A DNA stretch of 64,000 nt. Source: Escherichia phage RB49. The stretch lies in the sequence record NC_005066.1. The stretch is one strand, 5' to 3'. A program made the position numbers and the translations under genes. The notes under the pieces are model-generated. The model searched no databases and was not told where the DNA came from. It was given only the letters and a program-made list of their open reading frames with translations. Positions 1,813-59,628 of this stretch are shown here, one piece after another; position 1 is the first letter of the stretch; each line of letters starts with the position of its first letter.

Positions 1813-1839
1813 ACAAAAAAGCCGTCCCGAAGGACGGCT
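1813..1839 (-). terminator. Rho-independent terminator
   Basis: Hairpin gccgtcc-cgaa-ggacggc followed by a T-run on the minus strand, directly after the stop of the 1848..2285 gene. Confidence 0.6.
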
Positions 1840-1847
1840 AATGTTAA

Positions 1848-2285: not shown

Positions 2286-2331
2286 AATTAGTCACCTCTA
2301 TTGATTAGTTATTCAGAATATCAATTACAAA

Positions 2332-2715: not shown

Positions 2716-2964
2716 GCGACTAGCTGATAGACCATTGTTGAAACCAGAACTAGGATATAAACCGAAAGCGGTGTAACTTCGATTAGTCGGGAAATCTCAT
2801 TCATACTTCACCTCATACATTCATAAACACAACAACGAATAATACAGTAACAGTTATCAACGCCATTTTCAACCCCATATTCATAATATTTTCTTCGCCT
2901 CACGATGGACAGTAGCATGTCGATTCGTGCCATTATAGTCATCTAAATCGCTCTGTCAAGAACA

Positions 2965-2996
2965 AAAAAACAAAAAAGCCACCCCGAAGGATGGCT
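2965..2996 (-). terminator. Rho-independent terminator after hoc
   Basis: Imperfect hairpin agccacccc-gaagg-atggct with a flanking A/T run, 12 bp below the hoc stop. Confidence 0.45.
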
Positions 2997-3007
2997 GATA
3001 GATTTCA

Positions 3008-4222
3008 TTAAGCAGGATGCGTTTCACGAATGCGTAGAACTCGCTCTAACGTCTCTCGGTCCAGTTTATGTAACTCTTTAGACTGATACATGAAACCATT
3101 GCGAGATTCCATGCATGTGCAATCACTATATTTTTCTTCCGCTGCTGCGATCGTCTCCAGATCTTTGGCGTACTTGCTGGTTGAATAAACTTCTCGATCA
3201 CGCCACTCTAACCCAGCCTCATTGAATTTAACAATCTCGTCAAATACCCACCATCCAATGTAGATAAATGAAGTTTTGCGCCACGGGATCGGGTGTACGT
3301 AACGAAACATTTTAACAACTTCCATTGAACATTTTCGGCTTGTACTTGCTGCAACTTCTACTGTTTCATCTTCGATCTGTTGATATAGTTTAGCAACACA
3401 CCAGAATTTGGCTGTGTCATCGTAAGTAGCACTCTCTTTGAACAGATGACCGTCTGGAGTGATAGAAAATCCTTCCAGTGCTTCGCCGACCTCACTACCG
3501 ATCAGAGTCGGTGACAGTTGCCCTTCGCGCTGCAAATACCAGTTATATTTGATCGTCAAATTAGGCATACCGCTAGAATCGCCTACAATGTCCTCTGACA
3601 CAACATAATTAAGTGAGATCTCATTACCTAGTGCCACGGTCTTTGATTCCACCACATCCTGATCTACGTTCATTGTTGCCAGCATGATTTTAGTCGATGC
3701 GCTAGCGGCTGAATCTTCCGACTCTCCCCACACTTTTACAGTATACACGCCGTTTTTATCTGCTGTAAATTCTTGGATCGTAATATCCTGTGTTGTGTCT
3801 ATAACGTCTTCGCCCTTACTCCAACTATAATGTAGTTCATAGTTGTCTGCTGGAGTCTTCCCACCAGAAAATTTTACTGTTGCATGTAATTCTACGTCTG
3901 TTTGTGATGATACGTAGAAATGCTGCGGTTCGGTGATATTTACGATTAACTCAGCTTCTTCCATGAGGAAAACTTCAGATTCTACTGATGTCATCGTATC
4001 GGTATCTTGTACCGTGACTTTATAGCTACCCGCATTTTCACTTGTTGCGTCTGCTACAGTTAGCGTAGCTGTGTTATTTTCATGTGGTTGGTCGTCTTTT
4101 GTCCATGTATATGTCAAATTGCTGGGTAATGGTTCGTCACCCGCTACAGTCGCTGTTAAGGTGAAACCATCTCCAGCAAGAAAACATCTTTTGTTAGATT
4201 GTATTGATACTGTGAAAGCCAT
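3008..4222 (-). CDS. hoc: Hoc, highly immunogenic outer capsid protein with Ig-like domains
   Basis: 404 aa; C-terminal YVHPIPW...GWWVFDEIVK...ESRNG matches the T4 Hoc capsid-binding region as recalled; tandem Ig-like repeats at the N-terminus. Confidence 0.8.
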   Translation of the reverse strand: MAFTVSIQSNKRCFLAGDGFTLTATVAGDEPLPSNLTYTWTKDDQPHENNTATLTVADATSENAGSYKVTVQDTDTMTSVESEVFLMEEAELIVNITEPQHFYVSSQTDVELHATVKFSGGKTPADNYELHYSWSKGEDVIDTTQDITIQEFTADKNGVYTVKVWGESEDSAASASTKIMLATMNVDQDVVESKTVALGNEISLNYVVSEDIVGDSSGMPNLTIKYNWYLQREGQLSPTLIGSEVGEALEGFSITPDGHLFKESATYDDTAKFWCVAKLYQQIEDETVEVAASTSRKCSMEVVKMFRYVHPIPWRKTSFIYIGWWVFDEIVKFNEAGLEWRDREVYSTSKYAKDLETIAAAEEKYSDCTCMESRNGFMYQSKELHKLDRETLERVLRIRETHPA

Positions 4223-4391
4223 ATAAAGCCACTCCCATCGAAAATCCGAATTTAATTAATTGAAATAGTTGATTGTCATCAACCAGATAACCATTGCGAG
4301 ATTCCAATACATGAGTATTAGAATAGTGATGCAACGAGGCCGAAATAGTATCGATCTCGTCTGGGTATTTGTTCTGTTTGATGTAATACAT
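4194..4391 (-). CDS. Small ORF with a Hoc-like ESRNGY motif
   Basis: 65 aa; contains ESRNGYLVDD resembling the Hoc C-terminus; overlaps the hoc start by 29 nt; weak RBS. Confidence 0.25.
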   Translation of the reverse strand: MYYIKQNKYPDEIDTISASLHHYSNTHVLESRNGYLVDDNQLFQLIKFGFSMGVALYGFHSINTI

Positions 4392-4486
4392 TGATTTTGT
4401 TAGACATGTAGTATCCTCTTTTTAATTGCATAACGGAACTACAATTAAAATTATAACAAATATTTCACAACTTTTATCACCCAAAA

Positions 4487-5215
4487 TTACTTGAGTGTGT
4501 GGAATTGGCTATGTTTAGTCTCTCGCACCTTGACAGACCCATCGCGTTTGATATAATAGATCAGTGACTTGAGGGTGTCGTGTACATACGCGTGCGGGAA
4601 ACGCTCTGGATACTTCTTCCAATCTGGAGTATTAACGATCCAGTCGAAAATCCACCACGGGCAGGAGTAGTAACCACGACCGCCACCGATCAAGCAAATG
4701 GTCGGACGGAAGCCAGTAAGATCGCAAAATGAATCAGTGTCATGTGCTGGGGAACGATGTTCTGCTTCGTCAGAGAAAATGTTGGCTACCGGAGATTCCA
4801 CTTTAACTTCCGGTACATCTACAACTTCAATTGTAACTGGTACTGTGTGTGGTTTGGCTTCTTCTACAACTTCAATTGTAATTGGTTCTTCTTTTTGTTC
4901 TGGTTCTTTCATTGCTTCAACCAGAGACGGATCAACTTCGTCGAATACCACTTTATCATCTACGGTGTCTGCTGCCAGAATAAGATCGTTAATACTGGTT
5001 CCTTCTGCCGGAGTTTCTTCTTCCATTTCGGAAGCCAGTTTAGTTAATTCGGTTTCTACGAACTCGATCATGTTCTCTAGTGATAAAGTCTTTTTGACCT
5101 TAATATCAAATTGTTTTGCGTAGTCAGCTAATTCTGTTTTAGCTGTTTTCTGTGCTTCTTTGTCGTCGGACGCCGCAATAGCGCGGAGTTCTTCGAAATA
5201 TTCTTTATCAAACAT
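4487..5215 (-). CDS. inh: Inh-like capsid-associated protein (prohead protease inhibitor homologue, tentative)
   Basis: 242 aa, located between hoc and uvsW as inh is in T4; acidic repetitive N-terminus and a C-terminal PWWIFDWIV motif similar to Hoc WWVFDEIV. Confidence 0.45.
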   Translation of the reverse strand: MFDKEYFEELRAIAASDDKEAQKTAKTELADYAKQFDIKVKKTLSLENMIEFVETELTKLASEMEEETPAEGTSINDLILAADTVDDKVVFDEVDPSLVEAMKEPEQKEEPITIEVVEEAKPHTVPVTIEVVDVPEVKVESPVANIFSDEAEHRSPAHDTDSFCDLTGFRPTICLIGGGRGYYSCPWWIFDWIVNTPDWKKYPERFPHAYVHDTLKSLIYYIKRDGSVKVRETKHSQFHTLK

Positions 5216-15014: not shown

Positions 15015-15492
15015 CTAAATCATTGCAATATTTTAGTGCCTTAGTTTGAAATTCTGCGCTGTTAAGTTCTTCATAACGGTCATAATCACCGTTTAATGCT
15101 GCCTTTCTTGCTTCTTGCTCTATCTGCATGTCAGACATGATAATACAGCGATCCCGCGCTTTCATCTTCTCAAGTTGTATAGACTCTTCTTTCTGCTTGC
15201 GCAATTCTTCTTGACGCTTCTTTTCTTCTTGTGCTTTCTCTTCCCGCGCTTCTTTGATTGCATCCTTGAACATCTGCGTTTGTGGTGCTAAACCAACTTT
15301 AACTCGATCTACGTCTCGACGTTCCATTTTAGAAATAAAGCATGATTCGATCTGATCATCACTTGCATATGCTGCTTTACATTCACGAAGCAAGAAAACC
15401 GGATCTGATTTAGCATTCATCATAGCTTCCATGTTGGCACAACCAGTAAGCATGAATACAGCCGCAAGACCAATCAGTTTAATCATTTTCAT
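15007..15492 (-). CDS. Putative lipoprotein with a charged coiled-coil region
   Basis: 161 aa; N-terminal signal with lipobox LTGC; start overlaps the stop of the upstream ADP-ribosyltransferase gene. Confidence 0.55.
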   Translation of the reverse strand: MKMIKLIGLAAVFMLTGCANMEAMMNAKSDPVFLLRECKAAYASDDQIESCFISKMERRDVDRVKVGLAPQTQMFKDAIKEAREEKAQEEKKRQEELRKQKEESIQLEKMKARDRCIIMSDMQIEQEARKAALNGDYDRYEELNSAEFQTKALKYCNDLAK

Positions 15493-16313
15493 TTAGTCAC
15501 CTCACCGAAAATTGTAAATTGTCTACGATTCTCATCGCCGAAAGATTCTACTACGTCGTTTACCTTGACGCAAGTCCCGCGCGGTAAAATTACTTCACAT
15601 TCGCAAGGGTTCCATGCAATGGACCCAACAACAAAACCTTTATGATCTTTTACGTCAATTACCCATGATACATTACAAGAATGTTGCATCTTTCCGGTCA
15701 TTGATTCATATCGATTCTCACAATAAAGGCTAGTGCTGTTTGATAGCCATCCTCCAAAGATGATCGGTGTCATGCTGGTTGACACAAAGTTTTTAAAGGT
15801 AAATTCCTTATCTTCAATAATACGCTCTATTGTCTGAATGTCAAGATGTTGACCGCGATAAAGAGTACCGTTTAACTTTTCGGTTTTATCCATGACGCAA
15901 TCCATCAAATCAACAATCTCTGATATCTCATCGGTCATGTCTTCTTCCCCTAAGAGAGCACCATTTACCCATTCGTATTGCTCAGACACATAATCACAGA
16001 TTGCATTATATTCTGCTGGTGTTATGTTGTTATGTTTGTAATGTTTGAATACATTATCTCCAAAGTCTTCGGAGTGTACTTCATACATCACATTAATGAT
16101 TTTCTTGACAAATCCATAATCTTGTGTCTCACGCTCAAGGAAGCGGATAACCTTCACATAATCATCAAAGTTAATCTGATCGCTGATCATCTCAGTGATC
16201 ATGTAACCATTAATCCCCTCAATGTCATATGTTTCAATATAATTGTCCATACGTTCCATCATTGATTCGCGTGATTCTTCCGAAAGACGAAAATCCTGTA
16301 ATTTCTTGAACAT
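15489..16313 (-). CDS. ADP-ribosyltransferase, Alt/Mod-like R-S-E class, short paralogue
   Basis: 274 aa; LYRG...FVSTS...ECEVILPRG motifs, parallel to the C-terminus of the adjacent Alt. Confidence 0.7.
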   Translation of the reverse strand: MFKKLQDFRLSEESRESMMERMDNYIETYDIEGINGYMITEMISDQINFDDYVKVIRFLERETQDYGFVKKIINVMYEVHSEDFGDNVFKHYKHNNITPAEYNAICDYVSEQYEWVNGALLGEEDMTDEISEIVDLMDCVMDKTEKLNGTLYRGQHLDIQTIERIIEDKEFTFKNFVSTSMTPIIFGGWLSNSTSLYCENRYESMTGKMQHSCNVSWVIDVKDHKGFVVGSIAWNPCECEVILPRGTCVKVNDVVESFGDENRRQFTIFGEVTK

Positions 16314-31728: not shown

Positions 31729-32627
31729 TAAAATTCTCCGTAGTTAACCTGAAAACATTCTACACCAATTGAGCGGTACATGTCAACCACTTGATCACGG
31801 TCATCTACCGCCAAAACAACATGATAACGCGGTGCAATTTCAGAGAAGAAGATCTCTTTCTTCACTTCATGATCAGGACGACGATCATTAGTTTCACGTT
31901 GAAAGTGATCACTAGGTTCAATACCCTGTTCACGCAACCATTGCAGAGTATCTTCTTCGCAAACATCCTCACGCCCTGAGCATGTGATGATACGATAGCC
32001 ATTATCACGATACAGTTTAAGCATTTCGACCACTTGCGGACGAGGTTTATCTTCTTTGACCTTTGTCCAGTCAAACGGATGACGACCGCCCTTATCCGCT
32101 AATGTTCCATCAATATCAAAGATCACTGCCTTTGGCAGCATAGTATTCGGTTTGTATACTTCTTGACCCATATATTCCTGCATCAGATAAAATTGGTTAC
32201 GCAAATGAGAAAGTGGAATTGCTTTCTCGCCGCGATAGAAATTACGTTTCTTTAGTGTCTCAAACGGTTCATTGAACACTTGTTCAGTATACACCGCGTT
32301 AAATTCTTTTGCAAGTTCTTTGTAGAATACACGATGTTTTTCTTTCAGATTAGTATCAGAGATAATGATACTTAATCCGCGTGATAGAGTCTCACGAGCA
32401 ATCATTCTCTGAATAGACTCTACCAGCTTTTCTTTTTCCTTAGTATACTTGTATTTCAAATGTGAGTCAACACCAAACAACATAAGACGAAGATCATCGC
32501 GATTCACATTACGATAATTACTAAACCGTTTACATGTTTCCATCGCCCATGTAGTTTTACCGGACCCAGAACAACCAACGGTTAAAATCACTTCACATTT
32601 CGGCATTATTTCTCCTTCGGTTTGCAC
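31728..32627 (-). CDS. pseT: Polynucleotide kinase / 3'-phosphatase
   Basis: 299 aa; P-loop GCSGSGKT and HAD-type phosphatase motif VIFDIDGTLAD, as in T4 Pnk. Confidence 0.85.
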   Translation of the reverse strand: MQTEGEIMPKCEVILTVGCSGSGKTTWAMETCKRFSNYRNVNRDDLRLMLFGVDSHLKYKYTKEKEKLVESIQRMIARETLSRGLSIIISDTNLKEKHRVFYKELAKEFNAVYTEQVFNEPFETLKKRNFYRGEKAIPLSHLRNQFYLMQEYMGQEVYKPNTMLPKAVIFDIDGTLADKGGRHPFDWTKVKEDKPRPQVVEMLKLYRDNGYRIITCSGREDVCEEDTLQWLREQGIEPSDHFQRETNDRRPDHEVKKEIFFSEIAPRYHVVLAVDDRDQVVDMYRSIGVECFQVNYGEF

Positions 32628-33058
32628 CGTTCCTCATTAAGTTCTTTTCGATAATAACACATGATCAACTTACTTTCAAGTGTATATCTCTTAATATCCG
32701 CAAGCCAGACTCTGAATTTTTGGGAGTCCTCCCACGACATAGAAACTCTAGGTTTACCGTCTATTGTATCCACTTTCAGGTTAATGTCAACTTTTTCTAT
32801 TGGTGCTGGTAGTGGAGGATGTAATTTCGGTTCCTGTGAATAATGGTCCATTGTACACGAAGAAAGAGCAAATACAATAGGCACAGCGAAGACATGGATT
32901 ATGGCGGTCTGAAAATTCTTATGTGCTTTCTTAAACATCCAGTGTATCACGAAAATTGAAAACACCATCAGGATAATAATGCTTGCACCTATCCCCAGAT
33001 AATCAACCAGATTAAAATTGCTTATCTGCTCTTGTGTAGGCAATATTTCTATGCTCAT
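32606..33058 (-). CDS. Putative outer-membrane spanin (Rz1-like lipoprotein; true start may be the internal Met)
   Basis: Signal-like MFKKAHKNFQTAIIHVFAVPIVFALSSC with lipobox LSSC, then Pro-rich PPLPAP; follows the putative i-spanin in the pseT.3/pseT.2 position. Confidence 0.45.
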   Translation of the reverse strand: MSIEILPTQEQISNFNLVDYLGIGASIIILMVFSIFVIHWMFKKAHKNFQTAIIHVFAVPIVFALSSCTMDHYSQEPKLHPPLPAPIEKVDINLKVDTIDGKPRVSMSWEDSQKFRVWLADIKRYTLESKLIMCYYRKELNEERCKPKEK

Positions 33059-33429
33059 TTAGTAGCCTCCTTTAATTCTTCGGTAAACTCCTTAAATGAA
33101 TCATTAAGCTGTTTCTCTACCAACTTGGGTTTTTGTGCTACTACATAGCCTCGTGTAGCGTCTTTCATTGCTTTGTTTTGTTCTTCTGCAAACTTAGTTC
33201 TTATTCCGTACATCTCCTTTTGTAGCGAGTCTACAATCTTCATCTTATCATCTGTCTTTTTCTTATACTCTGTAAATTCCTGATTCAGTCGATCTACCTC
33301 CTTTTTATTTTCCCACCACATATTGCCACCCACCCCCAGCAATACAGATATGATAACAATGTATATCAGCTTTGACATATTACCCCCAACGACAAAAGGC
33401 GGGGAACTAGCCCCGCTTATTATTACCAA
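33055..33429 (-). CDS. Putative inner-membrane spanin (Rz-like: N-terminal TM plus coiled coil)
   Basis: 124 aa; TM helix LIYIVIISVLLGVGG then charged coiled-coil periplasmic domain. Confidence 0.45.
   Translation of the reverse strand: MVIISGASSPPFVVGGNMSKLIYIVIISVLLGVGGNMWWENKKEVDRLNQEFTEYKKKTDDKMKIVDSLQKEMYGIRTKFAEEQNKAMKDATRGYVVAQKPKLVEKQLNDSFKEFTEELKEATK
33398..33416 (-). terminator. Stem-loop (attenuator/terminator candidate)
   Basis: ggcgggg-aactag-ccccgc hairpin at the rnlA/spanin junction. Confidence 0.35.
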
Positions 33430-44975: not shown

Positions 44976-45950
44976 TTACATCGCTAACAGAGAGTCCAGG
45001 TCATCCAGATCAGAAGCGGAGGAAGTACCGCCACCCAGATCCAGTGATGCCATCAGGTCATCAGCAGAAGAATCTGCCGCCGTGCTAGCTGCGTTAATAC
45101 CAACTACAGTGCTAGCTGCGGCAATACCAGAATCGAATGCATTTAAAGCAGCGTCAAAATCGTCAAGCTGGCTGTTAATCGCTGCCGCAGCACTGGAAGC
45201 CGCAGCACCAGCTACCATAGAAACGCCCATAGTTTTCTTAAATTTGGTTTCCAGTTCATCGAACGGTTTAAACTGGCTAGGCGCTACAATCTCACTCAGA
45301 TCAACCATGTTTTCCATCAGATATTTCTGATATGCTTCGTCTTCAATTTTCGGAAGCTGTGATTGCTGCATGAAACGAGAATCATCATAGTTCTGGTGTT
45401 TATCAACCTTCTTAGCTTTCAGGAGGAAGTTAGCACCGGAGAACACACAAGTTACATCTACCGGAACTTCGCCCATGTCGGTATTCACGTTCACCATTGC
45501 AACGATCTTATCATAAATTTTCTGACCGAAGCGGAATTTGAATACCTTACCTTCATTTTCTGGTGCTTGAGGATCTTTCAGTACCAGAATATTTGCGTAG
45601 TAAGAGGCTTTACGCTTAATCAGTTGCCATTCTGTTTTATCGGTATTGTACAGATCTTTTTCGTTAATATATTTGCACACAGGGCAAGAATCAAAATCAC
45701 CGTGGGTGCTGGAGCAGTTTTCCCAATACCATTTACCATTAACTTTGAAGGAATGGTTTACCAGTTTCACAATCGGCAGACCGTCTTCTGTCTTAGACGG
45801 CAGGAAGCGAATCAGGGCTTCACCGTTACCTGCTGCATCAGTCTTAATCTTCCACTCTTTCGGATCTTCTTTGGAGAAACCGTTGCCACCTTTCAGTGCG
45901 GCCAGTTGAGCTTGCAGTTTGGAAGAATCTTGGCGTTTAAACATATTCAC
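44976..45950 (-). CDS. 32: gp32 single-stranded DNA-binding protein
   Basis: 324 aa; ALIRFLPSK ... KWYWEN ... [12 protein letters not shown] matches T4 gp32 as recalled; acidic Ala/Ser-rich C-terminal tail. Confidence 0.85.
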
Positions 45951-49038: not shown

Positions 49039-52000
49039 ATGGCAGATTTTTCTCAACATTTCAAGGCCACATTTGGCTTTGACGCTGGTAATGAAAAGGT
49101 CGTCAATGTAGCATTGGCTGATAAGAATGTCAACACCGATGCGGTCAACGTTGAATTTTTCAATTACCATAATGGCATTACTCAGTATGACACAACTCGC
49201 GGTTATGATCAATACGGAACTACAATTTATCAAAACCGTCCATATTATGCAAAAGAAGATATCACAAAGCCAGCAGGTGATTTTGACCCGACTAAATGGC
49301 AAGCACTGCGCACGGACCCACGTTGGGATTATATTGCAGCAACTTCCGGTGATACTCCTTTAAAGTCTGGTGATTATATCGCAGCAGATGGTCAATTTGC
49401 AAACTTGACTTTCTCTATGCCAACTAAACCAGCAGAGGGAGACACTATAACAGTAAAAGATATCGGTGGCAAGTGTGGTGTTAACGAATTATCGTTCTTG
49501 AGTTCAGGACATGAGTTTTACCATAACGGTAATGTGTATAACCGAAAATGGTATTGCACTACCCCGTATGCAATGAACTATTTCATCTTTGTTCGGAATC
49601 GTTGGCATGTTTATCAGACGGGAACAGAGCCGCGCGGTGTGTACGCACAGCCAGCGATTGATGCTATTCAAATGCAGAATGGTGATCAGGTATTTCGTCG
49701 TAGTTCGTTGGGTAATATTACCTTAGTGCTTCCTAAGTTTGCCAACAATGGCGACATGATCCAGACTACAGACCTTGACGGATTAACCGCAACCAACCAC
49801 GTTACGGTTAAAGTTCATGAGCACGCAGAAGAACAATCAATTGGCACGTCCGGTCTAAAAGAGATTATCGGTAAGCGTAGCGGTCATGGTGTATTCATCT
49901 TTGACAAACCGGAAAACTTATGGCGTTTGTGGGATGGTGATCAGTCTGTTCGTCTTAAACCGATCATCGATGACACTCGCTTGCAACCTAATAGCTATGT
50001 TGCTGTATTTGGTGATCGTGATGTTACTCTGACTCTACCGACCAATGTTGAGCCGGGTGATCGTATTCAAGTTTCTATGCAGTATATGCACGGAAACCAG
50101 AATTGCCGTATTATCACCGCCACAGAGGATACAAAAATCCTTATGTCGAAAAACATGGTTCAGTTTCCGAAGCGTAGCGAGTACCCATTCAACGGGACCG
50201 ACACATGGAAGGAAGTGTCTGAATTGTCGTTCAATGCGGCTAGTGATTATGTACCTTATCTGGAGTTCTCTTATTCAGAAGGTGATGATGGTAAGAAACA
50301 TTGGCTGGTAGCACACTCTCATCCGATCGTCGAACGAGTAGACCCTACTCGTAAAGATCGTGTTGGTGTAATTGCACTGGCTACCCAGACTGAAACGAAT
50401 AAAAACCATGAAGAGAATCCTAGCGACGAAGTTGCGGTAACACCAAAAATGCTGGCTAATAAAACCGCCAACGAAACTCGACGCGGTATTGCTCGCATTG
50501 CGACTCAAGCGGAAACGCATCAAGATACTGGTTCCAACTTCCTGGATGATGTTATCGTTACGCCTAAAAAGTTAAATGATTGTGTTGCTACCGAAGCCCG
50601 TCGTGGCGTGATGGAAATTGCAACCCAGCACGAAACCAATGAAGGTTTAGACGATACCCGCGCTATTACACCTAAGAAATTAGAAGAACGTCGCGCTTCC
50701 GAAGATCTCGCTGGTATTGCTGAAATTGTTCAGGCTGGCGGTAGTGCTGCCGCTCGACGTGGCGAAGCTGGTACAGGGATCTATAACATCAACGACCATG
50801 TTAAAATTGTTACGCCACAAAACATCAACGAAGTCAAGGCGACCGAAACTTCCCGTGGTGTTGGCTATCTGGCAACTGACGCGGAAGTGCAAGGGGCTAC
50901 AGAATCAACCCCGCAAGATGCTTTACTAATCACGACTCGCACGCTAACGAAACGTACTGCTACCGAATCGCGCACTGGTATCGCTGAAATTGCAACTCAG
51001 GAAGAAACAAACTTAGGTCAAAGTGATAACCATATCATCACGCCTAAAAAGCTGCATACTCGCCGCGCAACGGAAACTTTACACGGTTTAGCAGAAATTG
51101 CAACTCAGCCGGAATTTGACGCAGGTCTTGACGATGCTCGCATTTCTACCCCATTGAAGATTAAAACCTTCTTTGAGAATGCACAGCGTTTGAAAGTAGA
51201 TCCGACTCAGGGGCTTAACCTTACTGGTGATTTGTGGCAAGGTATCATGATCAGCGGTCTGGATGCAACCGAAGACACAAAGGGTGTCGCTAAAGTTGCT
51301 ACTACTCAGCTTACGGATGCTGGTCAAGATGATACTACAATCATCACGCCTAAAAAGCTGCAAGGCAAAAAAGCCACCGAAGGTAAAGAAGGTATTATCC
51401 GCGTTGGTACTCAAGCCGAAACCGTGGCTGGTACACTGGCTAATGTAGCAATTTCTCCGAAGAACTTCAAATATGTTGTTCAGACAGAGGATACATGGAA
51501 AGCAACCGAAGCGCGTCGTGGATTCTTGAAAGTTGCTACTCAGGAAAACTGTTTTGTTGGTGATAATCTGCAAGGTTCTACTCAAGAACTAGGAAACTAC
51601 CAGCATGACGGAATTGCTGTTACTCCGAAAGGATTAAACTACGCACTTGCTAATTTCTTACCTAAGATGGCAACCGCTCAGAATAGTTTGAAATTGGGTA
51701 ACGTAGAGGCCGCTAAATGGGCGCGTAGAGACATTGACCAGACCATAGAGAGCAATTACACGTTTAATAAAAACGTTAACGTGAAGGGCGATTTAGAGTG
51801 CTTAAAATCTGGTTCCTTTGAAACTCTGTCTGTGACTAAGAACTCAACCGATGATCCGAGTAATGGTCATCTGGTGTTGGGTGAGCGTGGAGTTGACGGT
51901 CACACCGGAATTACTCTGCATGGCACAACCGCATCGGAAGGCATGAAAAACTCGTGGTCTATTATCGTTGGTGGTACTGGAACAGCGCAAGTTGTTGATA

Positions 52001-52779
52001 GTGATGCTATCGCTTTCGGTAAAATCAATGATGGTGGAGTCGTCGAGCATTACGCCTTTGCTATGAAACACAATGGCGACGCGACAGCATATAGAGACTT
52101 TATTGCAGGTCGCAACCTGTATGCGAAACAAGGCGGTTTATACATTGTTGACCAGTCTAATCCGGCAATGACTCGTTCCCCAGATGGTATGCTGAATATC
52201 GGTCACGGTGGAAGTGTTAACATCAAGGCAGGTCATCAAACGTTAACTACAGAGATCGCCGGACAGAAATATCAGATCGTACACGCAGGAAACGCTGACG
52301 AAGTTCTTAACCGTCAGTTTGTTAAGAATGCTGGCGATACAATGGTCGGTAAGCTGACTATGGATAATGCGCCTATTGTTTCTGTTAAGCATGAAGCTAG
52401 CGCGGCAACCGCTCCAGCAATCGGTAACATCGGTTTCTGGAATATGCGAGTTACTACCCAGAACATCAAAGAAACTTATCCAGAGAAGAAAAACGGTACT
52501 CTGATGCAATGGGGTACTGACGCGGACGGGCTTACCCAGCTTTGGTCCCCTGATGGTACTCATAAACATTATATCCGTTCCGGTACTGGTGGTCAATGGA
52601 CCGCATGGGGTGAAATTTACACCAAACAGAACAAACCTACCGCCCAGGAAATCGGGGCAGTGGTTGCAGAAGGTGGTTTAATGAACTCTATGACGGTTCG
52701 TGATTGGATCAAAGTTGGTAATGTTAAAATCATCGCCAATAATCTGACTCGTACCGTAGACTTTATCTGGGAAGACTAA
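49039..52779 (+). CDS. 34: gp34 long tail fibre proximal subunit
   Basis: 1246 aa; position ahead of 35-36-37; internal repeats GIAEIATQ.ET...D..ITPKKL. Confidence 0.8.
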   Translation: MADFSQHFKATFGFDAGNEKVVNVALADKNVNTDAVNVEFFNYHNGITQYDTTRGYDQYGTTIYQNRPYYAKEDITKPAGDFDPTKWQALRTDPRWDYIAATSGDTPLKSGDYIAADGQFANLTFSMPTKPAEGDTITVKDIGGKCGVNELSFLSSGHEFYHNGNVYNRKWYCTTPYAMNYFIFVRNRWHVYQTGTEPRGVYAQPAIDAIQMQNGDQVFRRSSLGNITLVLPKFANNGDMIQTTDLDGLTATNHVTVKVHEHAEEQSIGTSGLKEIIGKRSGHGVFIFDKPENLWRLWDGDQSVRLKPIIDDTRLQPNSYVAVFGDRDVTLTLPTNVEPGDRIQVSMQYMHGNQNCRIITATEDTKILMSKNMVQFPKRSEYPFNGTDTWKEVSELSFNAASDYVPYLEFSYSEGDDGKKHWLVAHSHPIVERVDPTRKDRVGVIALATQTETNKNHEENPSDEVAVTPKMLANKTANETRRGIARIATQAETHQDTGSNFLDDVIVTPKKLNDCVATEARRGVMEIATQHETNEGLDDTRAITPKKLEERRASEDLAGIAEIVQAGGSAAARRGEAGTGIYNINDHVKIVTPQNINEVKATETSRGVGYLATDAEVQGATESTPQDALLITTRTLTKRTATESRTGIAEIATQEETNLGQSDNHIITPKKLHTRRATETLHGLAEIATQPEFDAGLDDARISTPLKIKTFFENAQRLKVDPTQGLNLTGDLWQGIMISGLDATEDTKGVAKVATTQLTDAGQDDTTIITPKKLQGKKATEGKEGIIRVGTQAETVAGTLANVAISPKNFKYVVQTEDTWKATEARRGFLKVATQENCFVGDNLQGSTQELGNYQHDGIAVTPKGLNYALANFLPKMATAQNSLKLGNVEAAKWARRDIDQTIESNYTFNKNVNVKGDLECLKSGSFETLSVTKNSTDDPSNGHLVLGERGVDGHTGITLHGTTASEGMKNSWSIIVGGTGTAQVVDSDAIAFGKINDGGVVEHYAFAMKHNGDATAYRDFIAGRNLYAKQGGLYIVDQSNPAMTRSPDGMLNIGHGGSVNIKAGHQTLTTEIAGQKYQIVHAGNADEVLNRQFVKNAGDTMVGKLTMDNAPIVSVKHEASAATAPAIGNIGFWNMRVTTQNIKETYPEKKNGTLMQWGTDADGLTQLWSPDGTHKHYIRSGTGGQWTAWGEIYTKQNKPTAQEIGAVVAEGGLMNSMTVRDWIKVGNVKIIANNLTRTVDFIWED

Positions 52780-52812: not shown

Positions 52813-53952
52813 ATGACACAAGATATAGAATTACGCAACACTGGAATTAGGTTTGCGCATTTCGACGAAGACTCTGCGACATTTACCAGCATTTCAGAAA
52901 ATAACTCTGTGATGTATAAGCTGGAAGTGCGCGGATCTAATGCGGATTCTACCAAACCAGCAAGAATTCGATTTAATGGAGTGGAGATCGTTGGCACTGG
53001 CTATGAAAATGGCCTAAATTTTAAAGTTCTTACTCCAACTGGACAACTACACGAAGAAAAGGTATTCTATGGTCGCGGTGCTGTTTTGGCAATGCGTGAT
53101 TATCTTTCTTTGCTGAAAGGTGATTATATCATTGCGATGGCAACTCATGGAGAATTGTTTGCAGATCCGATAAGTGATGTTGTATTTTCTAAGATGGGAT
53201 CTGTATCATTCCCGAATCACATTTTGTTACAGCAAATGCCTCGTGTATCATATGCAGCAATTTATTCTACTAAAATGGGTAAAATTGTGTGCGAAGGGAT
53301 GCAAGCAACTCACGGGGAAGGACAAGATTCATCTATACAAATTGAGAAAGTCTATGATACTATAGATGATCTTGCTATAACAGGAACACCACAACGATTT
53401 TTAGATTATCCGGTTGAGTATGTTAGCGAAGATGCCGAACATTTCGAGCTAATACAATGGCCTCATGATGAGATCAGCGCACCACTTGAATATTTTAACA
53501 TAAAGGCAGGTGACAAACTATCATTATCATTTGAATTGTTCCGTGATAGTGCCGCAGCCGCAGCCAACGTAACAGCGCGTTTCTATCACAACTATTTTAC
53601 TGATGGACAATACAAAACTGGCGTTCGATACAATGCCAGCAAAAAAGATCAATGGGAAAAGTTTGAAGCCGTCTATACCGTGCCGGAAGGTGTCGATAGT
53701 GTAGTAACTGGTTGTATCAGATATCCAACCAACTCAAATGAAGGTATTGTTAAAATTAGAAACATACTAATAACGCCGATCAGTGGAGTCGTCAAAACTA
53801 CTGGTCCTACTTCATTTGGTGTTAATGGTGTTAGAACAACTCATATTCAGGATAACGGTGATTTTACTAACCCTGTAATGAGTCTTCTTAAACTTCCTAG
53901 AGATAATAAACACATCACATCCAACAACTTTAAAGAGTTCGATGTTGATTAA
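52813..53952 (+). CDS. 35: gp35 long tail fibre hinge
   Basis: 379 aa; position and size. Confidence 0.65.
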   Translation: MTQDIELRNTGIRFAHFDEDSATFTSISENNSVMYKLEVRGSNADSTKPARIRFNGVEIVGTGYENGLNFKVLTPTGQLHEEKVFYGRGAVLAMRDYLSLLKGDYIIAMATHGELFADPISDVVFSKMGSVSFPNHILLQQMPRVSYAAIYSTKMGKIVCEGMQATHGEGQDSSIQIEKVYDTIDDLAITGTPQRFLDYPVEYVSEDAEHFELIQWPHDEISAPLEYFNIKAGDKLSLSFELFRDSAAAAANVTARFYHNYFTDGQYKTGVRYNASKKDQWEKFEAVYTVPEGVDSVVTGCIRYPTNSNEGIVKIRNILITPISGVVKTTGPTSFGVNGVRTTHIQDNGDFTNPVMSLLKLPRDNKHITSNNFKEFDVD

Positions 53953-54114: not shown

Positions 54115-54122
54115 TATAAATA
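54115..54122 (+). promoter_or_regulatory. T4-type late promoter box TATAAATA
   Basis: Exact TATAAATA about 34 bp upstream of the gene 36 start. Confidence 0.55.
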
Positions 54123-54155: not shown

Positions 54156-55646
54156 ATGGCAGATTTGAAACATGGATCTACTGTAGGCGGATCTCCCATT
54201 TGGACGCAAGGAAACTTGACGATCCAGCCAGCGGGGGATCAGCTTTTCTACAAAGGTCATAAAATCTATACCGCTTTTGATAGACCTTCGGCTACCGATT
54301 TTGATGCTGTTAGTGCATCCGAAGGTGGAACATTTCAAAAGCAAGTTCATTTCGAGGAAGGTTTAAGCGTAGGTAGCGCATCGGCTGGAGAAACCAAAAA
54401 GAATGGTATCTTTAAAGGCCAGAGTGATGCTGCTAATTTTGACGGCGTAAGCTGGGGTTTGCATTCATGGAAGTCAATCGGCTTTGTTAATGCCCGTGAT
54501 GGCGTTATTATGGCTTATATTGACACCACAACGGGCGAATTTAAGTCTAAAGGGACTATCGAAGGGACAACCATTAAAGATACAGGTCAACGCGTCTATA
54601 GCCCTGTTAATAAACCAACGAATAATGATTTAGATTTGGTGTCTCGTCGCGGTGATACCCTAACAGGAACATATAATTTAAACACTGTCACAGTTAAACT
54701 ATCGGTTGATTCGAAATTAATTGCAAGGGAACGTGATTTAATTAATTTTGATGCGACTAAGATCTATTATGGTAACGTTCTTGATACGTTGGTATTCCGA
54801 AGTAAAGATGAGCCTACCATTTTTGTTAATGGCAAAGAAGGTCGTTTTTATCACACCAACAATAAACCGACTAAAGCCGATGTTGGACTAGGCAATGTCA
54901 CCAATGATGCACAGGTTAAACGTGCTGGTGATATTATGGAAGGTAACTTGCAAGCGCCTAGAATGTTGGCGACAAACGATCCTGCTGGTCCTAATGAATT
55001 GGTTCGTTTGAGCTACTTTGAGAGAAAATCAATGGTAGCAAATCCAACCATCATTGGAAACGTTGATTGGAACACTCTTATTAATCGCGGTATCTATCGT
55101 GTGGAAAATGCTGGGTCGGGCACTAATAAACCGTCTGATAGCTATTATAATGGCGTTTTGATGGTATATCGCCCAGAAGATGCGGTCGGTACTCGTCGAA
55201 TTGTTCAGGTGTATTATCCTGAATCTATTGACCATCCGATGTGCTGGCGTTCGTGTTCTAATGAATCATGGACTGCATGGAACTATGTAGATCACCGTAA
55301 ATTAGCCGATATTCGCTATGTTAACGTAACTGGCGATACCATGACAGGACCGTTAACTGTTCCGGCTGCAAACGGTGTTAGAACAGCTAAAACTAACTAT
55401 AACGGGGATAACTGTTATGCGGCGTTAAGCGGTGCTGATGGTACTGCTATGATTCACCGCATTAGTGATATTAAAGGGACCGAAAAGCTGGGGATCACCC
55501 ACGACTCAAAGGTCGTGTTTTTCCGTTCTAGAAACAATACTCAAACCGTGGACCGCTATCAGCTTTATCATGAAGGTAATAAACCTACTCCGGCTGATGT
55601 TGGAGCGGTTCCACTTAATGCGGTGATTGATTTTGGTACTTTCTAA
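54156..55646 (+). CDS. 36: gp36 long tail fibre distal connector (enlarged)
   Basis: 496 aa; N-terminus MADLKHGSTVGGSPIWTQGNL matches the T4 gp36 N-terminus as recalled; longer than T4 gp36. Confidence 0.7.
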   Translation: MADLKHGSTVGGSPIWTQGNLTIQPAGDQLFYKGHKIYTAFDRPSATDFDAVSASEGGTFQKQVHFEEGLSVGSASAGETKKNGIFKGQSDAANFDGVSWGLHSWKSIGFVNARDGVIMAYIDTTTGEFKSKGTIEGTTIKDTGQRVYSPVNKPTNNDLDLVSRRGDTLTGTYNLNTVTVKLSVDSKLIARERDLINFDATKIYYGNVLDTLVFRSKDEPTIFVNGKEGRFYHTNNKPTKADVGLGNVTNDAQVKRAGDIMEGNLQAPRMLATNDPAGPNELVRLSYFERKSMVANPTIIGNVDWNTLINRGIYRVENAGSGTNKPSDSYYNGVLMVYRPEDAVGTRRIVQVYYPESIDHPMCWRSCSNESWTAWNYVDHRKLADIRYVNVTGDTMTGPLTVPAANGVRTAKTNYNGDNCYAALSGADGTAMIHRISDIKGTEKLGITHDSKVVFFRSRNNTQTVDRYQLYHEGNKPTPADVGAVPLNAVIDFGTF

Positions 55647-55716: not shown

Positions 55717-58656
55717 ATGGCAGATTTAAGCAGAATCCAATTTAAACGCACTAGCACTAAAGGTCGTCGACCTGATGCTGGTACGATGAATCCGGGGGAA
55801 TTGGCAATCAACCTTGCGGATCAATATCTTCTTACTAAAAATGATTTCGGTGCTATTATCAATTTAAGTTGTCCTCCGGTTTATGACCGCGATGTTACAA
55901 TGGCAGGTAAGGTTAAAGGTAATAATTATATCTTAAGTAAAACCGCTAACTATCTGGAAGATCAGACAGCGCGAGATCTTAATTACTTTGGTGCTTTCCG
56001 TACCAATGGTCTTGATGGTCTTCTCGAACTCACGCTAAACGTTCCTCATTCTTCTGGTGTTCAGCATGGTCGAGGATTTACTTTCCAGTATGGACATACT
56101 GGATCACGAGTAGAAACCTATGGCTATAATAGAGAAGGTCAAAAAGCATTTAGTTATAAAATGTATCACGAAGGCGATAAACCTACACCATCGGAATTGA
56201 ACGTTTACAGCAAACAAGAAATTGACCGTATGTTTGTTAAGAACGTTAAAATGGTTGTTCCTTCTGGTGGTGCAACCCGTGGTTATTTTAAAATTGCATC
56301 CGCAATGATCCCGCAGAGTGGTCGGATGGTGTTTCTGCGAATCTATGATGGTAATGGATATAATGTAAACTCATATGATCAAGTTGATTTTCTTGAAATT
56401 GTTATTCGTAGTGGTAATAATAACCCTAAAGGTGTTAGTATTGCTGCTTATCGTCGAAATGCTCTGAACGTTCATCAAGTATTTGCGGTTAATACTTCCG
56501 GTGATAACTACGATATCTACGTTAACTACGGTCGTTACACCGATAACGTTATTGTCGAATACGGTAAAACTAATGATGTTACTCTGACAGTACATGATGT
56601 TCCTGAATTAACTCTCGTTAAACCTTCTGTTGGTGTTACCGATGCTCGTGTTATTACAATGTTCAACACCGAAAACAAAGCCGGAACGTTGATGTTTGAT
56701 AATAACCCGCAAGGGACTTACGATATTATCAGTTTGAGTAATGCTGCTGATAATAATAGAAATTATCTGCGTAAATTCCGAAGCAAAGCTAGTGAAATGG
56801 TTTGGCATGAAACCGTTCAGGGTGCTGTATATCGTCTTGCTACTGGTGCTACAGATTCTACAGAAGTTATTAGAATTGATTCTAATAGTGCAATACCGGG
56901 TAATTATAAAGGATATGTAATTACTGGTAAAATGGAATTGCACGGTAGTGGTAATGCGATGACTTTACATCGACAGACTGGTCAAGCTGCATATATGGCG
57001 TGGTGGGATCGTCGTGATGGTAAAAACCAACGTAGTGGTTATATCGGTCATGCGGATGGTACTAGTGATGGTTTTGTGTGGCGTAATGATGTTGGTGCTA
57101 ACTCATTTGATTTGGAAGGTAGTGGACAAGTAAATTTGACTACAGGAAAAACAAAAATTGTATATACCAATGGTCAATATTATTCCGCTAACGCCGATGC
57201 ATACCGTATGATCTTTGGTAATTACGGTGCATTCTGGCGTAATGACGGCACTAAAGTTTATCTTCTGTCTACTGCTGAAAATGATAAGTATGGTGGATGG
57301 AATGCCTATCGTCCATTCATTTATGATTTAACTTCCGGTAACGTTCAATTAGGCGGTGATGGTAACGAAGAAGCATTAACGTTAGAACGTGCTTCTCGTG
57401 CCGCTCGCTTTAGTAATGACGTTTACATTAAGAAAGGGCATTTGACTTTCGACGCTGGGCGATTAAATTCCCGCGATTACTTCCGGTTTAACCATTGGGG
57501 TGATAGTAATAATGCTCGTGATAACATCTTACAGCTTGACGATAGCAAGGGTGCTCATTTTACCACTGAACGTACTTTAGCAACTGGTGCAATTAAAACT
57601 AAATTCTTCGGTGATTTGGAATCTGCTGGTCAAATTAAATGGGGTAAAGGGACCGCCACATCTACGTTTACTCTACGTGTATGGGGTAACGATAGTCGTA
57701 AACAAATATTTGAATGCGGCGATGAAAGCGGGTGGCATTGGTATACCCAACGAGCGGGGGGTCCTGGTACAAATGAGATTATATTCAATGTTAACGGGAA
57801 ATTTCAATCTCGGGATTTTGAGACTTCCGGTAATATTAAGATAACTGGTCCAGACATTGAGTTTCGTCGCACTGGTAATAAGCACATCTGGTTTAGAGAT
57901 CCGAACGGTTTAGAATTAGGTTTGATGTACTGCGATGATGCTGGTGCTATTCGCTTCCGTGGTCAGAAACAAGCCCAGACGTGGAAACTTGCGGATAAGA
58001 TGATTCATCTTGAGGCGGGGACTGTCGGCGGATCTGATAAAGGTTTGATTCGTGGTAGTGTTGCTGGTGGTAGCTGGGCTAGCTGGCGTGATCGTTCTGC
58101 CGGAATCCTCGTAGACTGTCCTCAATCAACCGATTCCGCTCATAACATCTGGAAAGCGACTCATTGGGGAAAATATCATATTGCGGCAATGGGTGTACAC
58201 GTTCCTGGCGGCACTATAGGTAATGCTATAGCACGCCTAAACGTTAATGACGCAAACTTTGAATTTAGCGCCTCCGGTGACATGTCGGCAGGACGTAACG
58301 GTAGCTTTAACGATGTGTATATTCGTTCTGATGCTCGACTTAAAATCAATAAGGAAGAGTATAAAGAGAATGCCACCGATAAAGTTAATCGCTTGACTGT
58401 ATACACCTATGATAAGGTTAAATCTTTAACCGACCGTACTGTCATTGCCCACGAAGTTGGTATTATTGCACAGGATCTTGAGAAAGAATTGCCGGAAGCA
58501 GTAACAACTTCTAAGGTTGGCGATCCTGATAAGCCAGAAGAAATCTTAACAATTTCTAACTCTGCTGTCAACGCTCTTTTAATTAAGGCGTTCCAGGAAA
58601 TGAGCGAAGAACTTAAAGCCGTTAAAGCTGAACTAGAGGAACTTAAAAAGAATTAA
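55717..58656 (+). CDS. 37: gp37 long tail fibre distal subunit with C-terminal intramolecular chaperone (peptidase S74-like) domain
   Basis: 979 aa; N-terminus IQFKRTSTKGRRPDAGTMNPGELAINL parallels T4 gp37; C-terminal YIRSDARLKINKEEY ... coiled-coil tail matches the SDxRLK auto-cleaving chaperone motif. Confidence 0.75.
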   Translation: MADLSRIQFKRTSTKGRRPDAGTMNPGELAINLADQYLLTKNDFGAIINLSCPPVYDRDVTMAGKVKGNNYILSKTANYLEDQTARDLNYFGAFRTNGLDGLLELTLNVPHSSGVQHGRGFTFQYGHTGSRVETYGYNREGQKAFSYKMYHEGDKPTPSELNVYSKQEIDRMFVKNVKMVVPSGGATRGYFKIASAMIPQSGRMVFLRIYDGNGYNVNSYDQVDFLEIVIRSGNNNPKGVSIAAYRRNALNVHQVFAVNTSGDNYDIYVNYGRYTDNVIVEYGKTNDVTLTVHDVPELTLVKPSVGVTDARVITMFNTENKAGTLMFDNNPQGTYDIISLSNAADNNRNYLRKFRSKASEMVWHETVQGAVYRLATGATDSTEVIRIDSNSAIPGNYKGYVITGKMELHGSGNAMTLHRQTGQAAYMAWWDRRDGKNQRSGYIGHADGTSDGFVWRNDVGANSFDLEGSGQVNLTTGKTKIVYTNGQYYSANADAYRMIFGNYGAFWRNDGTKVYLLSTAENDKYGGWNAYRPFIYDLTSGNVQLGGDGNEEALTLERASRAARFSNDVYIKKGHLTFDAGRLNSRDYFRFNHWGDSNNARDNILQLDDSKGAHFTTERTLATGAIKTKFFGDLESAGQIKWGKGTATSTFTLRVWGNDSRKQIFECGDESGWHWYTQRAGGPGTNEIIFNVNGKFQSRDFETSGNIKITGPDIEFRRTGNKHIWFRDPNGLELGLMYCDDAGAIRFRGQKQAQTWKLADKMIHLEAGTVGGSDKGLIRGSVAGGSWASWRDRSAGILVDCPQSTDSAHNIWKATHWGKYHIAAMGVHVPGGTIGNAIARLNVNDANFEFSASGDMSAGRNGSFNDVYIRSDARLKINKEEYKENATDKVNRLTVYTYDKVKSLTDRTVIAHEVGIIAQDLEKELPEAVTTSKVGDPDKPEEILTISNSAVNALLIKAFQEMSEELKAVKAELEELKKN

Positions 58657-58698
58657 GGAAAATTCCCAGGGAAGGGAAACTACTAAGGAGAAACGGCT

Positions 58699-58938
58699 GT
58701 GGTCTATAATATCATCATTGGTGCTTTGTCTAATTTCGGAATGAAATTATTGTCAAAGTTAATTAGTGAAAAGATGCTCACTAAAATTTTCTTCTATTGC
58801 GCTCGTCGTCTTGCGGCTTATACCAATACGCCAATTGATGATCGTTTTGTGGAAGAACTTTATAAGGAGTTTAATAAAGATCAGTCAGAAGATAGTAACG
58901 AGCAAGATAAACCTAGTGATAGTCAACTACCTAAATAA
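58699..58938 (+). CDS. Small membrane protein in the gp38 position (GTG start)
   Basis: 79 aa; strong AAGGAG RBS 8 nt upstream of the GTG; hydrophobic N-terminus; sits between gene 37 and holin t. Confidence 0.45.
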   Translation: MVYNIIIGALSNFGMKLLSKLISEKMLTKIFFYCARRLAAYTNTPIDDRFVEELYKEFNKDQSEDSNEQDKPSDSQLPK

Positions 58939-58971: not shown

Positions 58972-59628
58972 ATGCAAGTTTCTGAAAAAGGGAAAGACTT
59001 TGCTATCTCAAATGTCCTGCGCGCTATTTTCACAACTAAAAGCACGGAGTTGCTCGTACTTCGTGTTTTTGCTGCCGTCGTGTTGTCCATATTAGCATTT
59101 GTCGTTTATAGTAAAAACGAGTTATTTGCGCTTTATAAAGAGACTCGTTATGAGACTTATGCTCACATTCTCCAGGTAGAGAAAGACCGCAATTTTGATA
59201 ATGCAGCACAGGAGCAGTTACAGATAGTTCATGTGTCGGCTGATGCCGATTTTTCTGCTGTTTTTAGTTTTCGTCCGAAAAACCTAAACTATTTTGTTGA
59301 TTTGGTGGCATATGAAGGAAAGCTACCGCACACAATCGATGAAAAAAATTTAGGCGGATTCCCTATCAATAAAACGAGTGAAGAATATCGTAGGCATCTT
59401 TTAGGTAAATCCTATTTTACCGATAAAGATTTCCAGTATATTCCATCAAGAGAAAAGAAATTAGAGAATATCGATATAGGTTTCATGTATTCTTGTCCTA
59501 TATTCAATCTCGATAATGTCTATTCTGGTAGTATCGCCATTTCATGGAAGAATAAACCGGATATTGACATTGAGAATTTAGATACTCTTTGCAATCAATC
59601 TGCCAGAATCCTCGGAAGGATTAGATAA
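58972..59628 (+). CDS. t: Holin T
   Basis: 218 aa; QLQIVHVSADADFSAVFSFRPKNLNYFVDLVAYEGKLP ... MYSCPIFNLDNVY ... ARILGR matches T4 holin as recalled. Confidence 0.85.
   Translation: MQVSEKGKDFAISNVLRAIFTTKSTELLVLRVFAAVVLSILAFVVYSKNELFALYKETRYETYAHILQVEKDRNFDNAAQEQLQIVHVSADADFSAVFSFRPKNLNYFVDLVAYEGKLPHTIDEKNLGGFPINKTSEEYRRHLLGKSYFTDKDFQYIPSREKKLENIDIGFMYSCPIFNLDNVYSGSIAISWKNKPDIDIENLDTLCNQSARILGRIR

Follow-up and report, generated by a model that had tools for sequence, protein, structure and literature searches.

The question raised by this locus is how the long tail fibre of a T4-type phage is finished at its receptor-binding end when gene 38 is missing from its usual place behind gene 37. 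The window (the whole 64 kb stretch of DNA that was analysed) is classed as Krischvirus, the group of RB49, Phi1 and JSE. Gene 37 (55717–58656, + strand) starts with ATG and encodes the precursor of the distal subunit of the long tail fibre (979 aa, 108.8 kDa), which hits PHROG 1699 ('long tail fiber protein distal subunit', E=6.9e-191) and has 78% identity with Phi1 gp37 along its full length. It is preceded by gene 36 (54156–55646, + strand; PHROG 16472/1425), and is followed by a small ORF of 79 aa (ORF79; 58699–58938, + strand) and by the gene for holin t (58972–59628, + strand; 218 aa), the latter matching both Pfam Phage_holin_T (E=4.5e-61) and the PHROG 860 holin family (E=5.2e-88). The locus is syntenic with Phi1 genes 34-35-36-37-ORF-t. 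The late-promoter motif TATAAATA occurs 5' of gene 36 (54115–54122), with a second site at 49003, while none was found before gene 37, ORF79 or t. Genes 36-37-ORF79-t probably form a late transcription unit that starts at the motif at 54115–54122. An identical gp37 is not on record, no deposited phage exceeded about 91% nucleotide identity over the whole of gene 37 or most of the locus, and NCBIfam gave no match for gp37, ORF79 or gp38.

The first point to settle is the nature of the gene in the vacant place. ORF79 occupies the T4 gene 38 slot, since the next gene is holin t and the T4 order is 37-38-t. It has a GTG start with a Shine-Dalgarno sequence, AAGGAG, 7 nt upstream. The original prediction of a GTG-started ORF of 79 aa in this slot stands. 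Its description as membrane-like is weak: over 19 residues the Kyte-Doolittle mean peaks at 1.33, compared with 2.86 for the holin. The affinities of ORF79 lie with a protein of phage PM2: ORF79 matches phrog_402 with E=4.6e-20 and PM2 gp l matches the same family with E=8.2e-14, while an hhalign comparison of the ORF79 family profile with PM2 gp l gave a probability of 90% (E=1.7e-6). In precomputed annotation, homologues of ORF79 are assigned to Pfam PF26925 (Phage_PM2_Gpl); a text search for this accession returned no match. We read PM2 gp l as the lysis factor P18, from gene order and from PMC1950889, where both RB49 and Felix O1 are said to have homologues of P18. The function of P18, in lysis and disruption of the outer membrane, is established in PM2 alone (PMC9502842, PMC6356626). 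Among the Krischvirus relatives (RB49/Phi1/JSE) ORF79 is 96–99% identical, and the difference from Phi1 amounts to 3 nt, too few for any statement on selection.

ORF79 is grouped with holin t because it is a homologue of PM2 P18. The family is found in similar company elsewhere: in Vibrio-phage-like contigs the homologue comes after an endolysin, and in the Mooglevirus Mordin it lies downstream of a tail-fibre gene and overlaps a putative holin. Judged by gene context, ORF79 would be a putative lysis accessory gene and not a fibre component. The phage carrying ORF79 also encodes a canonical Rz-like spanin pair. A wider role for P18-like proteins, as a widespread holin partner (a regulator or a cofactor in making the membrane lesion) and not a substitute for spanins, with the junction as the boundary of a mobile cassette, is a speculative idea to which we give a rather low probability. 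The junction of tail fibre, P18-like gene and holin is seen in unrelated Ounavirinae as well.

A connection of ORF79 with the fibre was considered in the form of a degenerate remnant, or miniature, of the T4-type gp38/Tfa chaperone that still assists fibre assembly. ORF79 sits exactly in the gp38 slot, its homologue in Mordin likewise follows a tail-fibre gene, and BLASTP aligned ORF79 aa 40–59 with T4 gp38 aa 105–124 (20 residues, 50% identity, including EELYKEF) at a pairwise E of 0.001. Evaluated over the window, however, this match is insignificant (E=1.2), and the Caudo_TAP signal was not found in ORF79. EELYKEF lacks conservation across the family, where DTLEKAF, EEIKKAY or EKLEDNY can stand in its place. 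Elsewhere in the family the gene adjoins an endolysin or a holin. ORF79 belongs with PM2 gp l/P18, and PM2 is a tailless phage without fibres. The remnant, a very improbable reading, was rejected because the matching stretch is unconserved in the family and because the family is that of PM2 gp l.

The end of gp37 is formed by an intramolecular chaperone (IMC), the Peptidase_S74 domain, at aa 871–979 (58327–58653, + strand; 12.2 kDa). Pfam PF13884 matches aa 871–930 with E=1.4e-11 and 45.0 bits, and given the gathering score of 22 the match is far beyond chance, so that the alignment to S74 chaperone domains asked of the original prediction came out in its favour. The motif YIRSDARLKINKEEY (aa 868–882) includes Ser871 and Lys876, a dyad with the Lys at +5 (SDARLK) that sits at the N-terminal edge of the domain; SDARLK aligns with SDRRIK of S16 gp37. 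Across 15 homologues both dyad residues and the block NDVYIRSD.RLK are invariant or nearly so. A search of the PDB with the whole of gp37 did not reach the IMC structures, which were reached with the C-terminal fragment and a profile: the S16 gp37 chain 6F45_A was matched with E=3e-5 from the single sequence and 8e-13 from the profile, and the ICA domain of MyRF (7DC3) with E=1.2e-3 from the profile. The AF2 monomer model of the C-terminal segment has a pLDDT of 80, falling below 50 in the cleavage loop (segment residues 29–35). In a Foldseek search the top matches of this model were exclusively IMC/ICA structures (7DC3, 3GW6 and 3GUD, each with probability 1.00), the best being 7DC3 with E=2.5e-5 and a TM of 0.61. 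The model ends in a long helix at aa 948–978 (segment residues 112–142), in agreement with the coiled-coil tail proposed earlier.

These results support the assignment of the gp37 C-terminus as a putative auto-cleaving intramolecular chaperone, the cleavage being predicted from work on S16, T2, T5 and RB49. A self-cleaving chaperone on the fibre has been described for RB49 (PMC9569957), and in T5 pb1, with the dyad Ser1264/Lys1269, it is the Thr1263-Ser1264 bond that is cut (PMC4690869). By analogy, the cut in gp37 is expected between Arg870 and Ser871, ahead of the catalytic Ser and not after the Ser of SDARLK as first suggested, with computed products of 96.6 kDa and 12.2 kDa. The chaperone had been placed in the last ~130 aa; the domain itself is borne out by the S74 match, the dyad and the fold, while its length is corrected to the 109 aa (871–979) that follow the predicted cut.

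Immediately before the cut lies DVYIR (aa 866–870; 58312–58326, + strand), read directly from the sequence, which is predicted to end the mature gp37 and to serve as docking strand for the N-terminal domain of gp38. In T2-like gp37 the sequence DVYIR^SD.RLK is the predicted site of cleavage and gp38 docking (PMC7917993), and the DVYIR|SD of this gp37 is identical to that motif, which was described in phages with an adjacent gp38. The region around it is strongly conserved, with 96–97% identity to Phi1 over aa 851–979. The codon changes there relative to Phi1 comprise 19 synonymous and 5 non-synonymous ones, which indicates purifying selection on the end of gp37. The shaft diverges: aa 300–500 form a mosaic with 34–58% identity to Phi1. 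A 50-mer from the divergent shaft matched one IMG/VR contig of 35 kb, which does not extend to the gene 38 locus. Within the shaft, aa 425–536 make up a Gp34_trimer-like domain (56989–57324, + strand; Pfam PF21446, E=2e-42) that matched the T4 gp34 structures 4UXE and 5NXF in a PDB search with E of about 1e-14. A conserved end with a variable shaft is the pattern expected of a docking and chaperone unit, not of a receptor binder.

The original prediction had taken gp38 to be without a homologue. Within the window this is correct. T2-type gp38 was undetected across the 64 kb by tblastn with Phi1 gp38 as query (E<=10), T4 gp38 as query produced tblastn hits at chance level only (E>=0.56), both in the window and in those parts of Phi1 that were searched, and no gp38 was found in the window by Pfam scans of ten mid-sized ORFs and inspection of two unannotated ones. 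For the genus it is not correct: at that level there is a gp38-like adhesin encoded elsewhere, an outcome that the original prediction had named as refuting it. Phi1 has gene 38 at 44989–45765 (Pfam GP38, 1.8e-70; Gp38_N, 3.9e-18), about 52 kb beyond the span covered by the window; upstream of it TATAAATA was not found, a stem-loop and a Shine-Dalgarno sequence alone being present. Full-length gp38 is encoded at distant positions in all of the closest relatives listed (ELT3, Whisky, Sf20, PHB13, AV108, RB49 and JSE). This is in line with the literature on RB49, where gene 38 is displaced and a small ORF is found in its former place (PMC3157838), and where gp38 is the receptor-binding protein to which the host-range mutations E230K/Y231S map (PMC9569957). 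From the relatives, we infer that the phage of this window would have gp38 too, encoded outside the window.

The presence of an IMC is no argument against gp38, because in fibres of the S16/T2 type it is the removal of the IMC (the last 113 residues in S16) that exposes the docking surface for gp38 (PMC7917993). A fibre that dispenses with gp38, its matured gp37 tip binding the receptor directly as in the L-shaped fibre of T5 pb1, would fit the failure to find either type of gp38 in the 64 kb window, and there are fibres with an IMC that contact the receptor themselves, pb1 being an example (PMC4690869). Yet a gp38-like adhesin is encoded elsewhere in the genus, by a distant gene 38 in every Krischvirus relative examined, the RB49 host-range mutations map to it (PMC9569957), and conservation within gp37 is highest at the end, where the DVYIR docking motif lies, while a receptor-binding tip would be expected to vary. 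A fibre without gp38 is hence scarcely plausible, and its narrower form, with gp38 lost in this particular phage and a bare DVYIR tip in use, is far less likely than the speculative role of P18-like proteins as holin partners. No better placed is the suggestion that the S74 match reflects a decayed domain that no longer cleaves, so that gp37 retains its C-terminus in the virion: cleavage is extrapolated from the fibres of other phages and AF2 confidence is low at the scissile loop, but the nearly invariant dyad and NDVYIRSD.RLK block, the 19 synonymous against 5 non-synonymous changes, the intact predicted fold and the blocking of the gp38 docking site by an uncleaved IMC (PMC7917993) make it hardly credible.

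The preferred explanation is that the locus is very probably the module for the distal long tail fibre in a T4-type coliphage of the RB49-like (Krischvirus) group, following the plan of T2, T6 and S16 and not that of T4, with a cleaved chaperone, a tip capped by gp38, a displaced gene 38 and the P18-like ORF79. It is based on the S74 domain with its dyad and fold, the conserved tip, a gene 38 absent from the window and present in the relatives, and the homology of ORF79 to P18. Cleavage, docking of gp38 and receptor binding by gp38 would apply here by analogy with S16, T2, T5 and RB49. On this plan gp37 would be synthesised as a 979-aa precursor in which the last 109 residues act as a trimeric intramolecular chaperone and nucleate folding at the end of the fibre. 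After correct folding of the trimer, Ser871, activated by Lys876, would cut the Arg870-Ser871 bond and the chaperone would depart. A single gp38 adhesin, with receptor specificity residing in its glycine-rich C-terminal domain, would then cap the flat tip so exposed, which is made of three DVYIR strands. In the genus, gene 38 has been relocated to a position about 52 kb outside the window, and its former slot, before holin t, is taken up by ORF79, which may belong functionally with the holin.

The fibre differs from that of T4 and yet is of the majority T-even design. Its plan, the displaced gp38 and the P18-like gene are covered by earlier publications (Trojet 2011; Efimov 2022; Krupovic & Bamford 2007), and the current view of T-even fibre assembly is unchanged by these results. 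Some practical consequences follow. The search for the determinant of host range should turn to the distant gene 38 and not to the C-terminal end of gp37. The annotation of the small ORF that follows gene 37 should place it among the lysis genes. More generally, concluding from a partial genome window that a gene is missing can mislead if the gene is displaced. The P18-like gene is the one part without an existing explanation, kept as it is at 96–99% identity between the fibre gene and holin t in a phage that also has an Rz-like spanin pair.

Among known systems, RB49, Phi1 and JSE are closest, with the same gene order (34-35-36-37-small ORF-t) and a gp37 that is 78% identical overall and 96–97% identical over tip and IMC, diverging in the mid-shaft (aa 300–500). 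PM2 P18 (gp l; PF26925; phrog_402) shares its family core with ORF79. ORF79 also adjoins a holin, just as PM2 gp l adjoins gp k where the late operon ends. PM2 gp l, however, has 51 aa and is without the 20-aa acidic C-terminal tail of ORF79. T4 has the same operon position before holin t, and its gp37 shows 45% identity over the first 69 aa, which form the junction with gp36; beyond aa 1–69 the T4 protein aligns only weakly, in the shaft. In contrast to the gp37 described here, T4 gp37 is without an S74 domain, needs the Tfa-like chaperone gp38 and binds the receptor via its own needle tip, which has no equivalent here. A tip architecture unlike that of T4, as proposed at the outset, is supported. 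T5 pb1, the K1F endosialidase and the GA-1 appendage (4UW8, 3GW6, 3GUD), together with the MyRF ICA (7DC3), have the same fold, Ser-(x4)-Lys dyad and C-terminal trimeric helix. In T5 pb1, K1F and GA-1 the matured tip or enzyme acts on the receptor directly, while here the tip is a predicted platform for a separate adhesin. S16 (PDB 6F45), T2 and T6 have the same C-terminal IMC with the autoproteolysis motif x|SDxRxK (autoproteolysis being predicted here), the IMC of S16 having 113 aa and that of this phage 109 aa. Once exposed, the trimeric tip of their fibres is the docking site for gp38, a monomeric, glycine-rich adhesin that attaches by its N-terminal domain, and Krischvirus gp38 has both GP38 and Gp38_N. 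In those phages gene 38 is directly downstream of gene 37, whereas in Krischvirus it is about 55 kb away on the circular map; this displacement, a known Krischvirus rearrangement (PMC3157838), is a matter of gene order and not of mechanism.

The tail-fibre genes of the window lie on the plus strand and, as assigned by PHROG and Pfam, comprise gene 34 (proximal fibre subunit, 49039-52779), the connector genes 35 (52813-53952) and 36 (54156-55646), and gene 37 (55717-58656), which encodes the 979-aa distal subunit gp37. They are followed on the same strand by ORF79 (58699-58938), a 79-aa reading frame of phrog_402 (a family of unknown function in PHROG) that starts at a GTG with an AAGGAG Shine-Dalgarno sequence ahead of it, and by holin t (58972-59628, 218 aa; holin T at E=4.5e-61). 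The T4-type late-promoter motif TATAAATA is found upstream of gene 34 (at 49003) and gene 36 (at 54115) but not before gene 37, ORF79 or t, and a GC-rich stem-loop with a T-run lies downstream of t, so genes 36-37-ORF79-t are probably a single late transcript. The fibre locus matches RB49-like phages of the genus Krischvirus (Phi1, RB49, JSE, Sf20, ELT3, Whisky and others), and so does a control segment of 24 kb. Phi1 has the same gene order, 34-35-36-37-ORF252-t, with ORF252 likewise of 79 aa; on its map the window extends from within gene 24 (~97.3 kb) to ~160.3 kb. Elsewhere in the window, a 274-aa ORF (15489-16313, minus strand) adjoining baseplate genes matches the Pfam family of ADP-ribosyltransferase exoenzymes (E=4e-16) and is probably an Alt-like RNA polymerase ADP-ribosylase.

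The C-terminus of gp37 is an intramolecular chaperone (IMC) domain. The motif quoted in the original prediction is present at aa 868-882, with Ser871 and Lys876 within it, and Pfam Peptidase_S74 ('chaperone of endosialidase') covers aa 871-930 with 45 bits, where the gathering score is 22; the domain is real, but its size is 109 aa rather than ~130. Among solved chains the last 200 aa match a single one, 6F45_A (S16 distal fibre subunit, from a Salmonella phage; E=3e-5), from ~25 residues ahead of the Ser on through the terminal helix. With a profile of 15 homologues this match improves to 8e-13, and the ICA domain of MyRF (7DC3, E=1.2e-3) and tail fibre 8JOV, which bears an SDERLK motif, are also picked up. 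Across the homologues the NDVYIRSD.RLK block is nearly invariant and its Lys invariant. When aa 837-979 are modelled with AlphaFold2 (pLDDT 80), the chain closes with a helix of 31 residues, and a Foldseek search of the PDB with this model gives significant hits to IMC/ICA structures only: MyRF 7DC3 (E=2.5e-5, TM 0.61), 3GW6 (K1F endosialidase chaperone) and 3GUD (GA-1 appendage chaperone). The module is spread over 1,222 phage records, among them T-even relatives, RB43, Aeh1, T5-like phages and streptococcal PblB proteins.

Cleavage had been placed after the Ser. In T5 pb1 it is the Thr1263-Ser1264 bond that is cut, the Ser being activated by Lys1269 and departing with the chaperone (PMC4690869), and S16 gp37 is likewise cut at DLNVS^SDRRIKK (PMC7917993). 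By analogy, the predicted cut in gp37 would therefore fall ahead of the Ser, at Arg870|Ser871, giving mature gp37 of 96.6 kDa and a chaperone of 12.2 kDa. In S16, autocleavage of the last 113 residues exposes the docking surface for gp38, and in T2-like Tequatroviruses the DVYIR strand directly before the cut is predicted as that surface (PMC7917993). The gp37 of the window reads exactly DVYIR|SDARLK. Because removal of the IMC in S16 exposes a gp38 docking surface, the presence of an IMC does not imply a tip that lacks gp38.

Identity to Phi1 gp37 is 94-98% at the N-terminus, 34-58% over aa 300-500 and 96-97% over aa 851-979, where 19 codon differences are synonymous and 5 non-synonymous. A variable shaft with a conserved end is the pattern expected where the tip is a platform on which a separate adhesin docks, and is the opposite of that expected of a receptor-binding tip. 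The part most diverged from Phi1 (aa 300-500) lies just upstream of a strong Gp34_trimer domain (aa 425-536, window 56989-57324; Pfam E=2e-42). gp37 matches the T4 gp34 crystal structures 4UXE and 5NXF, and a weaker gp34-like stretch occurs at ~aa 649-712; these gp34-like domains within gp37 indicate shaft modules common to the proximal and distal half-fibres. Within the divergent shaft, 50 nt (56930-56979) are matched exactly in a 35 kb IMG/VR contig (IMGVR_UViG_3300029516_000235), which places this gp37 mosaic in a metagenome; among deposited phage genomes there is no whole-gene match.

The original prediction held that no gp38 homologue is present and that the fibre tip differs from that of T4. 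Within the window the first part stands, as tblastn with T2-type and T4 gp38 returns nothing above chance, but it does not hold for the genome. Gene 38 of Phi1 is annotated at 44989-45765 on the opposite strand, and in its product of 258 aa Pfam recognises GP38 (E=1.8e-70) and Gp38_N (E=3.9e-18). With this protein as the tblastn query, full-length gp38 is found in RB49, JSE, ELT3, Whisky, Cognac, Sf20, PHB13, AV108, SSG23 and others, in every case distant from gene 37. The displacement of gene 38 in RB49, where a small ORF takes its place, is already in the literature (Trojet et al., PMC3157838). So are the self-cleaving chaperone and the gp38 adhesin of RB49 (Efimov et al., PMC9569957), and RB49 host-range mutants carry E230K/Y231S in gp38 (Efimov et al., PMC9569957). 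Both the displaced gene 38 across the genus and the published genetics contradict a fibre architecture without gp38. A search of the window and of parts of Phi1 turned up no T4-type (Tfa-like) gp38; the general fibre chaperone 57A is annotated in Phi1.

Upstream of the displaced Phi1 gene 38 (45766-45830) come a stem-loop resembling a terminator (GCCCCTTAATTGGGGC and then a T-run) and a Shine-Dalgarno sequence, with no TATAAATA late promoter; the gene has small early-region ORFs around it, on the opposite strand. Phi1 gp38 shares 85-89% identity with the gp38 of some phages whose genomes are ~170 kb (e.g. Escherichia phage PaulHMueller), in which it is annotated as a distal long tail fibre adhesin tip, but is only 82-84% identical to that of several Krischviruses (Sf20, PHB13), which suggests adhesin exchange across genera.

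Judged by its sequence relationships, ORF79, in the gene-38 slot, is a known homologue of the PM2 lysis protein P18. Its identity across Krischviruses is 96-99%, it is modestly hydrophobic (highest mean over 19 residues, 1.33), and homologues at 32-47% identity occur in Ounavirinae, Vibrio phages and phage 7-11. Homologues from a large protein collection bear PF26925 'Phage_PM2_Gpl' as their precomputed Pfam label. PM2 gp l (51 aa) falls in the same phrog_402 (E=8.2e-14) and matches the ORF79 family profile with a probability of 90% (E=1.7e-6). Homologues of P18 have been listed in "PaP3, Felix 01, and RB49" (Krupovic and Bamford, PMC1950889); from the overlap of this list with the gp l family, and from gene order, gp l is taken to be P18. 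PM2 needs P18 to disrupt the outer membrane (PMC9502842; PMC6356626). A lysis role agrees with the genomic context: ORF79 is immediately ahead of holin t, in Citrobacter phage Mordin a putative holin gene begins within the P18-like gene, and the homologue in Vibrio-phage-like contigs comes after a Phage_lysozyme gene. A 20-residue similarity of ORF79 to T4 gp38 (pairwise E=0.001) was taken as chance, since the matching stretch is not conserved in the family.

On the minus strand, a pair of Rz-like spanin genes is found upstream of pseT (33055-33429, phrog_739, E=4e-26; 32606-33058, phrog_812, E=1e-32), so the phage has canonical spanins besides the P18-like gene. The lipoprotein signal of the second ORF (…VFALSS|C) is internal, and its true start is therefore probably an internal Met.

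Ounavirinae (Mordin 1545-4560; a second locus, L012, 5001-5548) show the same sandwich of tail-fibre gene, P18-like gene and putative holin with overlapping start; that holin (phrog_4038) is of a family other than holin T, and the junction is common to two unrelated myovirus lineages. For the fibre itself, the original observation is confirmed and its interpretation holds in part: gp37 does have an IMC and is not built on the T4 plan, but the inference of a fibre without gp38 fails. The arrangement is a variant, already described for the RB49 type, of the fibre design of T2 and S16, which is the majority design.
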